A stretch of 64,000 nucleotides of DNA from Candidatus Thorarchaeota archaeon (GTDB taxonomy: Archaea > Asgardarchaeota > Thorarchaeia > Thorarchaeales > Thorarchaeaceae). Shown piece by piece: positions 21,948 to 37,011 of the stretch (its first letter is position 1; each line of letters starts with the position of its first letter). A program made the translations under genes and the position numbers. The DNA lies in the NCBI GenBank assembly GCA_048882045.1, contig JBHLRZ010000015.1, positions 1-64,000 on the forward strand, given 5' to 3'. Under the pieces are notes generated by a model that saw only the letters and a list, made by a program, of their open reading frames with translations, was not told where the DNA came from and made no database searches.

Positions 21948-23150
21948 ATGGCAGAAGTTCTCACCAAACCGTCAAGACGAATCAGAAACATGGTGATGAA
22001 GGAGCTAAGGTTGATAGTCAAAGACAAGGTAGCCCTTCTCCTCATCTTCATGCTTCCAGCAGTTCTGATTGGTATGCTTGCTTATGTCACGAACGAGAGC
22101 GGCTTTGGTGGTATGAGCGCAAGTGGAGGAGGATTGGGTGGTGGGATTGGCGGAGATGGTAATGTCACAGCCACTGATAATGGAAATGAAACAGGTTTGG
22201 GAATCATCTTTGGGATTGTTGACTTGGACACTACAAGGACATACGATGGTGAGGACCTCTCTGAGAACTTAACAGCGTATTTCGAGTTGATAGTGGATGA
22301 AATCATACATTATAATTCAACAGCAGAGGCGTATCGGGGGCTCTATGAGAAGGAGATAACTGCATATGTGGTGATTCCTGACGGGTTTGAAGCTAACCTC
22401 ACAATAAATGAACCCACGTATATCGAGGTCCATTTTGATGGAAACGATCTCTTGGGCTCAGCGAGTGTATCAGGAGTGGTTCAGGGAGCTACAATCCTAT
22501 TTCGTGTGGGCAAATTGTGGATCCGATCTGAAGTCTTCCCAGGAACCGTGATAGAGTTTGCACCTGAAGGAGGATATCTGGAGAGTGTATTCGGAGCATT
22601 CATTGTTATTTTTTCAAGCTATCTGGGTATCGCAATGACCTCAGCACAGTCGATTGTGGGAGACGCTCCTCTTCGAAGGATGCTCTTGACGCCTACAAAC
22701 AGGCTTGAAGTCATCACCGCAAAGGTGTTTGGCTATGTGATCATTGGATTCTTCCAGTCGCTTCTTTTGGTTACCCTTTGGGTCCTAGCTTTTGACCTCA
22801 GTCTAAATACAAGTTTCCTCGCTCTCGTTATTATTATGTGTCTGGCTTCTCTGACAGGTTCAGCGACTGGCATATTGATTTCATCTGTCGCTGGCACTCG
22901 ACTTCAGGCAAATCAGATGTTTCTCTTCGTCCTGTTCGCGACATTGATTCTAGCAGGATTCTTCATTGATGTGGGAGTCTTGGATGAGTATCTACCAATG
23001 AATCAGGCGATGGGGCTGCTAATAGATACTGCATTCAAGGGTCTCTCATTACTAGAGGTTTGGGAAAGAATCCTGAAGTTGCTCGGATTCTCGGTCATAG
23101 CAATGTTAGCAGCTTCGTACATATTCTCGAAAAAACCCACTCTAGGGTAG
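21948..23150 (+). CDS. ABC-2 type transporter permease
   Basis: KELRLIVKDK, extracellular domain with VVIPDGF, LRRMLLTP..RLEVITAK, C-terminal TMs. Confidence 0.9.
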   Translation: MAEVLTKPSRRIRNMVMKELRLIVKDKVALLLIFMLPAVLIGMLAYVTNESGFGGMSASGGGLGGGIGGDGNVTATDNGNETGLGIIFGIVDLDTTRTYDGEDLSENLTAYFELIVDEIIHYNSTAEAYRGLYEKEITAYVVIPDGFEANLTINEPTYIEVHFDGNDLLGSASVSGVVQGATILFRVGKLWIRSEVFPGTVIEFAPEGGYLESVFGAFIVIFSSYLGIAMTSAQSIVGDAPLRRMLLTPTNRLEVITAKVFGYVIIGFFQSLLLVTLWVLAFDLSLNTSFLALVIIMCLASLTGSATGILISSVAGTRLQANQMFLFVLFATLILAGFFIDVGVLDEYLPMNQAMGLLIDTAFKGLSLLEVWERILKLLGFSVIAMLAASYIFSKKPTLG

Positions 23151-23162
23151 GAGTGATCAAAG

Positions 23163-36200: not shown

Positions 36201-37011
36201 AGACTATGATGAGATCTTCACCTACATGACGGATCCGCTGTCGGAAGATAGTGACGGCGATTCCATTGGAGACTATGATGAGATTTTCTCATACAACTCA
36301 GACCCCAACTCGTTGGATGGAGACGAGGACGGACTCACAGATTATGAAGAGATCTTCATCTATCTGACACTACCTAGAAACAACGACACCGACTCAGACC
36401 TCATTTCGGATGGTCAAGAGGTGGAGGTGTACGATACCGATCCACATATGCCTGACTCAGACTCTGATGGTATTGACGACTACACAGAGATCTTTGTACT
36501 GGGTTCAGACCCGAACAACCCAGATTCGGATGCGGACGGTCTGCTCGATGGTACAGACTTCATGCCAACGATGCATTGGATATTCCCGCTGATAGGATTG
36601 GGAGTGTTGCTGTTCGTGGCTGCTGTAGGAGTCAGACGGTTCCGGGAAAGATACATGGTGGAGGAGTTCGTTACCGAGGCAGAGCCAGCCAGTCTAGGAC
36701 TCGAACCTGGCATGGAGATTGTGGTGGAGTACAAGATCCGCGATGGCCGGGTGATATTCGGTGTTGTGGTGAGGAATGGTTCGGACAACCCGATGCAGAA
36801 CGTGCAGGTGATACTGGGCGTGCCTGACCTTACTGACACGATACAGACCGAGAGCCTAGGTACAGTGGACCCAGACACTATCTCTATTGCACAGATAGAG
36901 TTCGAGCTGCAGCCAGGTGCAGAGGGCGAGCTGGTCGGCATGGTGGAATATGACAGTGTCGAGGGTGAGCACAAGGTCGTGAACCTGAAGCCTGTGAGGA
37001 TTGTCGCATAG
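30214..37011 (+). CDS. Giant surface protein: signal peptide, FG-GAP-like beta-propeller, about 80 TSP3-like Ca-binding repeats, TM, cytoplasmic beta-sandwich
   Basis: ATG 30214 overlaps upstream TGA; D.D.D..E(V/I)VVG blades; DxDxDxLxDxxE...TDP repeats; TM WIFPLIGLGVLLFVAAVGV-RRFR. Confidence 0.88.
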   Translation: MNMKPYHAIIALLVVCVLAGMQVQTTDPGFQPVTIPVPQVPHSIAEIAPFNTAIVWSTTTGNQVVDVVIDNFDADARDEVAVISQNGTLVLFDEDGTLLWRLDLGSTPHALTSFDGTASAGQEMLIGTDYGVLVVGADKTVQMNMSLPEPVYAVVGANVDGDALEEVVVGCDDFYVYAFEINTTPLWSYLSNGRVRLLVDGDIDADTRDEIVVASQGRRFTLLEDTGAVLFEKTSATAINVIAAGDLTTAANWDVLYGSSNGTVAVWYDTGTLAYSLALDDSITALRVGDLVTGGRSEFALGTDVNQFRVYDSSGLLLWNKTMGGAPNDIRFPNIGATANAQVLVGTPNTLTIYNSTGWRVNQRTVNGFAGALSIGDLDSFGGEEYAVGTNFGVVSTYGRDFDKDQLADAREILIEGTLYDDSDSDNDNLSDGQEVLTYDTNPLSSDSDGDKLSDFAEVITHGTDPNDPDSDGDDLTDWQEIYLGTDPNAQDTDLDALTDYEENNITLTDPLESDSNDNGVNDAQDDNDGDGLTNLQEVRITLTDPNDVDSDNDGTTDYYDDQDGDNLANWKEIQVGTDVWDPDSDDDLLLDGAEVKIYKTSPLNEDTDSDQLTDFEEVMIVGSDPLSADGDDDGLSDYDEWVVYGTLVMNPDSDSDNLQDGEEVNTYHTDPLNDDSDGDLILDGDEVDIYGSDPNSADTDLDGLDDYAEIFVEFTNVTNSDTDGDSLGDGLEVNTYGTSPLLVDTDNDRIRDPDEIKYLSDGWDPTNNETFAVGVLDGDYDRDGDNLTNYDEIYLTRTSPILADTDGDLLNDDLEDNDLDGINNYDEIYVTFSKPRDPDSDDDKVKDGDEWLILGTDLNDEDSNDNGVSDYDEDFDNDDLPNGIELYVTETDPFDATTYGSTPDGDYDGDLDSLPNYFEVFMSHTDPLYNDTNDNGILDGDEDPDNDELTNADEYMYDCDPLNADSDNDQLTDAEEVFDTHTDPNDNDDDDDGILDGQDDLDNDGLTNLEELRTYGTNVTLWDTDGDRIRDGLEIQVGLNATNPDTDGDSLYDGWNDIIPNGIYEPHLGERGEDVNANGVVNVGETSPFEVDSDFDGLDDDEEYLYGTSPIDEDSDNDLLLDGDEVFEYFTNPLSNDSDSDFLSDYIEVEITLTDPNNMWYNGTHTDYQIDSDGDMLTNGDEIDIYDTSPGDYDSDDDNIGDGMEVLVYFSDPLSNDSDGDGLLDNEELFYGTGINTQDTDGDQLDDFVEIEWLGTDPLLASTYGNGTLDGQLDHDGDGLTDAVEIYGYHSNATAKDTDGDLLPDGFEVYVSGTSPTDMDSDNDQLSDYDEYYIYHTDPSGSDSDSDNLDDYFEVWVSLTSPTMWDSDGDTLGDGFEWNNGTNPNSVDTDNDLLNDNIELDIGTDPNLNDTDGDTLSDWEEWVLYDTDPLEADVDGDGLNDAEELENGTDWENWDTDFDTISDGDEVNIYETSPINDDTDGDNLADADELFNSGTDPLLVDTDGDSIPDDLDDEDADGLNNHDEIYLYETNCTLIDSDFDLLSDYAEIFVWNTSPNMFDTDEDGLGDWDELFYWSSDPNNRDSDGDGLEDSEEALTFHTLLNSTDTDSDNLSDYDEIKVFETDPLRFDTDGDTIGDGDELNVYNTSPLRKDTDGDKLLDNQEIHGIYMTFNISGVIDSRWVYPNPRKADSDLDTLTDFEEVNMTFTDPTLFSTQGTTVSDADWDIDNDMLTNAQEIRLTKTDPAIYDTDSDGKSDGEDDEDRDLLTNYWECVLTETDPRDPDSNDNGISDYNDDEDGDTLTNGEECKIYGTDPRDRDTDRDKLDDNEEIEDWGTDPLNKDSDFDGLEDGPEVHDYGTMPNLNDTDSDLLSDYEEVFLTYTSPLTNMTNPGVLDSLWDSDNDGLTNIEELRVYGTLPNDPDFDNDDLEDGDEVMLGTEIDNPDTDLDELSDGAEVHLYGTSPLLTDTDSDLIGDYDEVMVYGTNGTSTDTDLDQIGDYDEIFTYMTDPLSEDSDGDSIGDYDEIFSYNSDPNSLDGDEDGLTDYEEIFIYLTLPRNNDTDSDLISDGQEVEVYDTDPHMPDSDSDGIDDYTEIFVLGSDPNNPDSDADGLLDGTDFMPTMHWIFPLIGLGVLLFVAAVGVRRFRERYMVEEFVTEAEPASLGLEPGMEIVVEYKIRDGRVIFGVVVRNGSDNPMQNVQVILGVPDLTDTIQTESLGTVDPDTISIAQIEFELQPGAEGELVGMVEYDSVEGEHKVVNLKPVRIVA
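31414..36567 (+). repeat. Coding tandem array of TSP3-like acidic repeats (22-23 aa long units with interspersed 11-12 aa short units)
   Basis: About 80 units counted by hand, e.g. DSDGDKLSDFAEVITHGTDPNDP. Confidence 0.9.

Follow-up and report, generated by a model that had tools for sequence, protein, structure and literature searches.

The window analysed here, the first 64,000 nucleotides of contig JBHLRZ010000015.1 from a Candidatus Thorarchaeota archaeon, carries five forward-strand open reading frames (ORFs) at positions 21948-37011 in the ORF list compiled for it. Sequentially, they encode a permease of the ABC-2 type of ATP-binding cassette (ABC) transporter, an ABC ATPase with an N-terminal extension (ATP1), a membrane protein that joins a subtilase domain of family S8 to a GIFT domain (S8-GIFT), a second ABC ATPase (ATP2) and a giant membrane protein rich in calcium-binding repeats (hereafter the giant). 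The S8 domain of this set is most likely a pseudoprotease, judged from its sequence across orthologues. All four gene junctions, read directly from the sequence, lie within -4 to +12 nt: the permease stop is 12 nt from the ATG of ATP1, which is preceded by GGAGTG, the ATP1 stop is 4 nt from the likely start of S8-GIFT, the S8-GIFT stop is 2 nt from the likely GTG start of ATP2 with AGGAGGTG ahead of it, and the ATP2 stop shares an ATGA overlap with the start codon of the giant. Shine-Dalgarno-like motifs are seen at the junctions, a 250-nt gap lies upstream of the permease gene, and the gene before that gap is on the opposite strand. By every sequence criterion, the five genes are an operon. 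The sequencing runs listed as containing the locus are DNA runs of sediment, soil and mangrove metagenomes, with no RNA run among them. The features are collected in Table 1.

Table 1. Genes, domains and neighbouring features at the locus (positions in nucleotides of the window; residue numbers in the last column are those of the respective protein)
Feature	Position	Strand	Details
ABC-2 permease	21948-23150	+	400 aa
ATP1, ABC ATPase with N-terminal extension	23163-24839	+	558 aa
ATP1 N-terminal extension	23163-23882	+	residues 1-240
S8-GIFT type I membrane protein	24829-29232	+	ORF 1467 aa; 1462 aa from likely start ATG 24844; order: signal/anchor segment, propeptide-like region, S8 (151-480), beta-supersandwich (488-750), beta domains (752-995), Gly/Asp-rich linker, GIFT (1052-1250), Ig-like (1251-1352), transmembrane helix (1366-1390), tail (1391-1467)
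S8 domain	25279-26268	+	Asp181, His212, Ser412; Asp306 in place of oxyanion Asn
Beta-supersandwich (first domain after S8)	26290-27078	+	resembles GH15/GH94/GH116 N-domains
GIFT domain	27982-28578	+	IFT52_GIFT 36.5 bits
ATP2, second ABC ATPase	29225-30217	+	ORF 330 aa; likely start GTG 29234
Giant type I membrane protein	30187-37011	+	ORF 2274 aa; 2265 aa from likely start ATG 30214; order: signal peptide, FG-GAP/BBS-like beta-propeller (~31-430), ~1700 residues of TSP3-type Ca repeats, transmembrane helix (2131-2149), 125-residue cytoplasmic beta domain
Giant, propeller	30280-31500	+	
Giant, cytoplasmic domain	36634-37008	+	
Divergent upstream ORF	19385-21697	-	770 residues; without Pfam match
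Cytoplasmic tetratricopeptide-repeat (TPR) protein	41013-42284	+	recurs downstream of the operon
Gly-rich GLGG/GFGG loop, start of permease loop	22095-22165	+	low complexity, extracellular
Gly-rich GLGG/GFGG loop, S8-domain insertion	25925-26015	+	low complexity, extracellular
Gly-rich GLGG/GFGG loop, linker before GIFT	27820-27920	+	low complexity, extracellular

The permease matches Pfam family ABC2_membrane_3 at 94.9 bits (cut-off 31.6). Hydropathy gives it six transmembrane (TM) helices, the first two joined by an extracellular loop of 165 residues, and a phmmer search against PDB sequences returned no match. The two ATPases match ABC_tran at 94.8 bits (ATP1) and 93.3 bits (ATP2) and are paralogues of each other, ~33% identical. 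The nucleotide-binding domain (NBD) of ATP1 occupies residues ~241-470 and is followed by a C-terminal domain; ATP2, which also has a C-terminal domain, scores 180 bits as a member of the DrrA subfamily, and among solved structures its NBD is closest to those of ABCA3, ABCA4 and ABCA1 (E 2e-51 to 1e-45). Walker A, signature, Walker B and H-loop are intact in both (GESGAGKST, LSGGEQRR, LLMDEPTSGLD and ITHY, respectively, in ATP1), and both ATPases are predicted to be catalytically competent. With its permease family match and canonical NBD motifs, the system belongs to the ABC-2, or type V, exporters. In every Asgard family examined (families are denoted by f and genomes by G numbers), ATP1 and ATP2 fall into orthologue groups of their own, arguing that the heterodimeric NBD pair is old, and an orthologue of the permease adjoins the ATPases in families f1, f2, f12, f21, f24, f9, f7 and f22.

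A second, orphan ABC-2 permease lies elsewhere in the same genome (G000 contig C3:21483-22598; locus L065:7478-8635, minus strand). It is a paralogue, 40% identical to the operon permease, with no ATPase gene alongside; it is kept in G001 and G339 of f1 and in G025 of f2, and was not found in the representatives of f12, f21, f7 and f24. In Thorarchaeia, this orphan could supply the second half of a heterodimeric membrane domain.

The cytoplasmic N-terminal extension of ATP1 matches the Pfam model Regulator_TrmB at 31 bits (cut-off 22.2) over only the last 70 model positions. In an AlphaFold2 model of ATP1 (pLDDT 86.4, pTM 0.78), two tandem helix-plus-beta units occupy residues 19-121 and 127-229, which resemble the C-terminal subdomain of TrmB at the domain level only. 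TrmB also ranks first when a profile of the extension is searched against PDB sequences, but at an E of 0.23, and a protein language-model cluster search with the extension gave no usable match. The module may serve in ligand sensing or partner binding. A regulator of the TrmB family was considered for this region and ruled out, there being no helix-turn-helix match and the module being fused to an NBD. In the f24 counterpart of ATP1 (626 residues; locus L043:14611-16488 of G160), the N-terminal extension does not align to the TrmB-like module, and lineages may be able to exchange this part of the protein.

The S8-GIFT protein matches Peptidase_S8 at 125.8 bits and IFT52_GIFT (PF23355; cut-off 27.2) in Pfam, whereas its score for ABC_transp_aux (PF09822) is 22.9 against a cut-off of 34.7; the G040 orthologue reaches 36.8 with the latter model. 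Its N-terminal region aligns to the propeptide of subtilisin E, it spans the membrane once, it carries 26 N-X-S/T sequons, and its 77-residue cytoplasmic tail is helical and conserved across families. The part beyond the S8 domain was modelled with AlphaFold2 (residues 470-1395, pLDDT 79.8, with the Gly/Asp-rich linker disordered) and compared with solved structures. A profile of these residues against PDB sequences retrieves the GIFT domain of IFT52 at E 8e-13 to 1e-11 and human site-1 protease (S1P) at E 0.003, and the top chains in Foldseek belong to OST48/Wbp1 (6s7t_G and 6c26_B at E ~1e-10), S1P and IFT52. By VIA-align, the GIFT domain superimposes on that of IFT52 with a Z of 22.9 (192 residues, root mean square deviation (rmsd) 2.0 Å). 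The alignments with S1P reach Z 18.5 (9csd_A, over 308 residues) and 18.2 (8uw8_A) and cover S1P 478-874, that is, its P-like and GIFT subdomains (PMC11231238). Against OST48, Z is 18-19 over 281-292 residues with an rmsd of ~14 Å; this high value restricts the match to the order of domains and their separate folds, not their rigid arrangement. The first domain after S8 is a beta-supersandwich that VIA-align pairs with the N-domains of GH15 glucoamylase, GH94 phosphorylase and GH116 enzymes (Z 18-22, ~225-260 residues). All 13 orthologues compared, drawn from eight families, have His527, Glu553, His555, Asn609 and Trp704 in this domain, which suggests a conserved pocket.

Other GIFT proteins occur in the same genome. 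A 998-residue S8-GIFT paralogue (G000 contig C3:113107-116103; locus L066:5108-8104) lies away from ABC genes, with two more S8 genes nearby; it scores 182 bits for Peptidase_S8 and has DUF4350 and GIFT matches. A second GIFT protein of the genome, on contig C11 and above the PF09822 cut-off, was considered as part of an ABC module and set aside, its neighbours being unrelated.

The S8 domain aligns with Tk-SP subtilisin at E 1.8e-34 and has the S8 fold, yet its catalytic residues are not conserved. Among the 111 orthologues of S8-GIFT collected in a table (at least 53% identity), the nucleophile position, 412, carries Thr in 59 proteins, Ala in 44 and Ser in 8. Even relatives that are 80-89% identical switch among these three residues, so the position appears to be a small-residue site no longer serving as nucleophile. 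Asp306, in place of the oxyanion Asn, is invariant in all 111, and the Asn is likewise replaced by Asp in the other families examined. In other Asgard families, the nucleophile position holds Ala (f7, f12, f21 and f24), Gly (f9), or Leu, Asp or Val; in some, Arg, Pro or Ser stands at the triad His, and in two, Ser or Gly stands at the triad Asp. When a profile of the C-terminal part was searched against 1.8 billion cluster representatives, ~45 matched end to end, and those S8 domains among them that can be aligned show the same losses. An active subtilase, which would have a conserved Asp-His-Ser triad and oxyanion Asn, is thereby made unlikely across the orthologues.

The loss is specific to the ABC-linked family, because shorter related Asgard proteins of S8-GIFT-TM architecture (1240-1340 residues, some with a Zn-ribbon) keep the canonical DTG, HGT, GN and GTSMA motifs; their sources are Baldr-, Odin- and Ranarchaeia. 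No region of the ABC-linked protein is as well conserved as its S8 domain, even with the catalytic residues lost: the mean pairwise identity among eight family representatives is 44%, against 16-26% for every other region, which argues that it is kept for something, most simply binding. Public records name the protein an S8 family serine peptidase, and this functional label is probably wrong.

The gene order permease-ATP1-S8-GIFT-ATP2-giant is kept, wherever the contig reaches, in each of 19 related Thorarchaeota loci that were retrieved by protein pattern and in the corresponding regions of G001, G013, G339, G350 and G025, the order thus extending to other genera of f1 (G339, G350) and to the sister family f2 (G025, 34-63% identity). 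The arrangement is not chance adjacency. The conserved core comprises four genes, those for the permease, ATP1, ATP2 and S8-GIFT, which are linked or co-occur in about eight Asgard families. In f12 the core has the same arrangement without the giant; it is divergently arranged in f21 and rearranged in f24, and the f9 cluster holds two tandem permeases. In f7 and f22, S8-GIFT stands alone, and a triad of ATP1 (with extension), permease and ATP2 is found elsewhere in the same genomes. At one f12 locus (L016:9648-10172 of G035) a small GTPase of the Ras family (Ras 163 bits) follows ATP2 directly, in the place of the giant.

Co-occurrence was surveyed in 400 Asgard genomes with the C-terminal part of S8-GIFT and the ATP1 extension as markers, and is given here without a statistic, relatives not being independent. 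In f1 the extension was found in 80 of 85 genomes and the S8-GIFT part in 78 of 85. Both markers are present in f2, f12 (17/19 each), f7 (5/5), f21 (6/6), f22 (3/3), f24 and one genome of f26; neither was found in the large families f5 (0/31), f18 (0/22), f14 and f20. The pattern has exceptions: S8-GIFT is accompanied by a diverged extension in four f9 genomes, and only the extension, weakly matched, is seen in f27 and f31. This family-level pattern is consistent with one functional unit.

The giant contains 69 calcium motifs of the DxDxDxLxD type, is 23.5% Asp and carries 35 N-X-S/T sequons. In five other genomes its length stays at 2196-2277 aa with 43-69% identity; such constancy, noteworthy in a protein built of repeats, suggests a stalk of fixed length. 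Scanned alone, the propeller passes the Pfam cut-offs of BBS2_Mid (42.7 bits), Beta-prop_BBS7 (33.9 bits), PHTB1_N (30.6 bits), PQQ_2 and CGLA, the last a carrageenase propeller, and the matches to BBSome-family propellers probably reflect a shared FG-GAP-like blade type. The language-model clusters nearest to the cytoplasmic domain are the appendage Ig domains of eukaryotic coatomer beta/gamma and adaptin; with scores of 0.83-0.89, under the 0.9 line and of low recognition value, these are a lead rather than evidence. A bacterial TSP3 protein of the CglD/MtsD type was considered for the giant and rejected by the curated models: although the motif is abundant, the repeats reach 308 bits in 12 stretches with NCBIfam CglD (cut-off 400) and 17.3 with TSP3_bac (cut-off 25).

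Queries with the propeller and the C-terminal part of the giant found nothing in the representatives of f12, f21 and f7 and one weak partial match each in those of f22 and f9, and all five of these families keep the other four genes. The giant was found in two Thorarchaeia families only, f1 and f2. Restricted in this way, it appears to be a lineage-specific add-on of Thorarchaeia, and its own signal peptide and anchor make export by the ABC system unlikely.

Two neighbouring genes recur with the operon. The divergent upstream ORF occupies the same position in f1 loci, at 36-61% identity. The TPR gene lies shortly or directly 3' of the giant gene in G001, G350 (39% identity), G025 (30% identity) and several loci of metagenome-assembled genomes, whereas in the window it follows the operon only after ~4 kb of genes for radical-SAM, flavodoxin and membrane proteins; its product is a possible, uncertain sixth member of the operon. 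The Gly-rich loops listed in Table 1 are not conserved in sequence between families.

An earlier interpretation drawn from the letters of the window, here called the sequence-only reading, had listed five genes at this locus, a GldAFG-like combination of ATPase, ABC-2 permease and GIFT protein, and cytoplasmic domains on both large proteins, and had named neighbourhood conservation in Asgard genomes as a check. Its gene list holds by the ORF list, the junctions and the Pfam matches. The GldAFG-like combination is recovered by the ABC_tran, ABC2_membrane_3 and IFT52_GIFT matches and by conserved linkage, and the GIFT domain is real by both profile and fold. Each of the two large proteins crosses the membrane once and ends in a cytoplasmic part, of 77 residues in S8-GIFT and 125 in the giant, and the linkage extends across related loci, as the check had required.

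We propose that the operon encodes one envelope machine, in which a GldAFG-like ABC-2 exporter would work with a dead-subtilase/GIFT outer subunit that binds rather than cuts, a reading in which our confidence and our doubt are about equal. The engine would be an ABC-2 transporter of the ABCA/DrrA-like kind, its six-helix permease with the large outer loop being driven by a heterodimer of the two ATPases. The single-pass S8-GIFT protein would be the outer accessory subunit, in the role that GldG has beside GldA and GldF, and its inactive subtilase domain would hold a peptide or a partner in the old substrate cleft. The cargo would be a surface component, lipid-linked or polymeric, that is exported or extracted at the expense of ATP hydrolysis, and the dead-protease/GIFT ectodomain would receive this cargo or position it on the cell surface. 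The exporter-type permease and the ABCA-like NBDs favour such cargo, and so do the extracellular folds, those of the GIFT domain and of the supersandwich that recalls glycan enzymes. With its resemblance to N-domains found in glycan-active enzymes, the supersandwich, like the GIFT domain, suggests that the ligand is a glycan or glycoconjugate. In Thorarchaeia, the giant, predicted to be co-transcribed, would be a calcium-binding stalk with a distal propeller, Sec-inserted and held by its own TM anchor, and would form a surface scaffold that is served by the machine or tethers it.

Several points weigh against this proposal. The window copy of the S8 domain itself reads D-H-D-S, with Asp, His and Ser kept, and may have residual activity. 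In two families, f7 and f22, the S8-GIFT gene lies apart from the ABC genes. The binding supposed among the proteins is presumptive. The idea of a glycan ligand comes from fold resemblance, and shared folds do not show function. The TrmB-like label of the ATP1 extension draws on one Pfam match and a weak PDB profile match. Finally, given the families without it, the role of the giant may be unrelated to that of the core.

The main rival to the proposed exporter is mechanotransmission or sensing without a transported substrate, which we regard as unlikely while giving it more weight than any other alternative. FtsEX drives a conformational change with the catalytically dead EnvC, and in a first version of this rival the ABC ATPases would move the S8-GIFT ectodomain in a similar way. 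In a second, the ectodomain would be a CspC-like receptor that reports to the ATPases and the TrmB-like module, and PMC6636752 offers CspC as a precedent for a subtilase pseudoprotease that acts as a sensor. Both versions draw on the pairing of a pseudoenzyme with an ABC system, on the cytoplasmic tail of S8-GIFT that is conserved across families and on the extra cytoplasmic module of ATP1. Against them, the permease has the six-helix ABC-2 fold typical of exporters rather than the four-helix fold of FtsX/MacB, the closest solved NBDs belong to ABCA-family lipid exporters, and a kinase, DNA-binding domain or other output domain is missing from the core genes.

A broader evolutionary reading, which we think rather improbable, would make the Asgard S8-GIFT radiation the stock for eukaryotic S1P and possibly for the GIFT modules of OST48 and IFT52. 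The complex of ABC transporter and dead protease would then be a surviving ancestral GIFT cargo-handling machine, coupled in Thorarchaeia to a receptor-like giant. Under it, the active forms would be those of Baldr-, Odin- and Ranarchaeia and the dead, ABC-coupled forms those of Thorarchaeia and Lokiarchaeia-type lineages, and it would take in the resemblance of the giant's end domains to BBSome propellers and to adaptin/COPI appendages.

With still less conviction, one could suppose that the giant is a calcium-repeat adhesin which the ABC complex exports and which is then cut or set free by the S8 protease, after the pattern of RTX/TSP3 adhesins in type I secretion with LapG-type release. An acidic giant with calcium repeats is, by its gene arrangement, co-transcribed with ABC genes and a subtilase in f1 and f2, and PMC11264772 describes bacterial RTX adhesins with TSP3 repeats that use a dedicated ABC system and release by a protease. 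The sequence-only reading had gone in this direction, picturing an ABC complex that exports, processes or remodels the giant. Processing is not supported by the S8 nucleophile and oxyanion residues, which are not conserved. Export is made unlikely by the giant itself, whose N-terminal signal peptide, C-terminal TM anchor and folded cytoplasmic domain amount to a Sec-type type I topology, and by the transporter, an ABC-2 permease with separate NBDs and not a fused type I secretion exporter; substrates of type I secretion lack an N-terminal signal peptide and have their secretion signal at the C-terminus. Nor does the giant look like the reason for the machine, the core being kept in f12, f21 and f7, where the giant was not found, and in f22 and f9, where matches to it are weak and partial.

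That the genes are unrelated neighbours, for instance a generic drug or lipid ABC-2 exporter beside surface proteins, seems very improbable to us: the physical association of the products is presumptive and, in f7 and f22, S8-GIFT is indeed encoded away from the ABC genes, but order and tight junctions are kept down to 34-63% identity, the genes stay adjacent through the rearrangements in f21, f24 and f9, and family-level co-occurrence is strong. Peptide natural-product clusters that pair an S8 leader peptidase with an ABC-2 transporter exist, and S8 and ABC-2 genes do lie side by side here, but a lantibiotic-like cluster with a LanP-type peptidase and a LanFEG-type immunity transporter can be practically dismissed, since neither a precursor peptide nor a modification enzyme is encoded in the operon, most orthologues have a dead protease, the S8 domain is part of a multidomain membrane protein of 1460 residues and the set is vertically conserved across Asgard families.

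If the proposed exporter with its binding subunit is right, the locus defines a conserved Asgard envelope machine; our literature search found no paper that describes this operon or GIFT domains in Asgard archaea. It provides the best prokaryotic structural counterpart to the GIFT architectures of S1P, OST48 and IFT52, here tied to an ABC transporter. It also gives a testable handle on the role of GIFT domains beside ABC-2 transporters, a question since GldG, and on how Asgard cells build their surface. A subtilase that is dead and yet highly conserved adds a clear case to the small set of binding pseudoproteases.

Among known systems, the closest in plan is GldA, GldF and GldG, described as an ABC plus GIFT unit (PMC5682007). 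As in GldAFG and in bacterial ABC-2 pairs with ABC_transp_aux (PF09822), an ABC ATPase, an ABC-2 permease and a membrane-anchored extracytoplasmic GIFT protein are encoded together. With the GldA model (TIGR03522), ATP2 scores 132.5 and ATP1 96.7 bits against a cut-off of 402.6, and no GldF or GldG model of NCBIfam matches the permease or S8-GIFT at E <= 0.01; falling short of these equivalog models, the system is not GldAFG itself, though it follows the same plan. It departs from GldAFG in having two different ATPases, one with a TrmB-like extension, in a GIFT protein that is ~900 residues longer, with a dead subtilase, a beta-supersandwich and a conserved cytoplasmic tail, and in its host, a single-membrane archaeon without T9SS context, although no search aimed at T9SS genes was made. 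A different archaeal GldG-like (DUF4350) system has vWA and MoxR partners (Makarova et al., PMC5898192).

Eukaryotic S1P (MBTPS1/SKI-1; PDB 8UW8, 8UWC and 9CSD) shares with S8-GIFT a type I topology and the order propeptide, S8, beta-sandwich, GIFT, TM and short tail, the archaeal protein having an extra 260-residue supersandwich inserted. Unlike S1P, it has lost the catalytic machinery, and its partner is an ABC transporter, not SPRING or SREBP. The window S8-GIFT matches no Pfam MBTPS1 model; MBTPS1_4th gives sub-threshold or marginal matches in related Asgard proteins only. A specifically S1P-like S8 domain was ruled out, as the S8 domain of the window and that of an active Asgard relative are closer to the archaeal Tk-SP subtilisin, S1P ranking ~36th among PDB subtilases for the active relative. 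The order GIFT, beta domain and TM resembles that of OST48/WBP1, and the GIFT fold is shared with IFT52; unlike OST48, the protein is not a rigid match to a known OST subunit, and it shows no link to STT3/OST genes, though association with OST was not tested, and homologues of WBP1/OST48 have been reported only in Heimdallarchaeia (Eme et al., PMC10307638).

The subtilase pseudoproteases CspC and CspA of Clostridioides difficile are used for binding or signalling, according to PMC6636752 and PMC7200643, and in these, as here, the subtilase fold is kept under selection after catalytic loss. S8-GIFT has a weak match to NCBIfam CspC_non_triad; the Csp proteins, however, are soluble spore proteins without GIFT domain, TM helix or ABC partner, and no specific relationship is indicated. 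Compared with ABCA transporters, the subunits here are separate polypeptides and the permease has no solved relative detectable by sequence, yet the six-TM permease, the large TM1-TM2 loop and the C-terminal domain after each NBD are common to this system, the ABCA type and the DrrAB/ABC-2 exporters.

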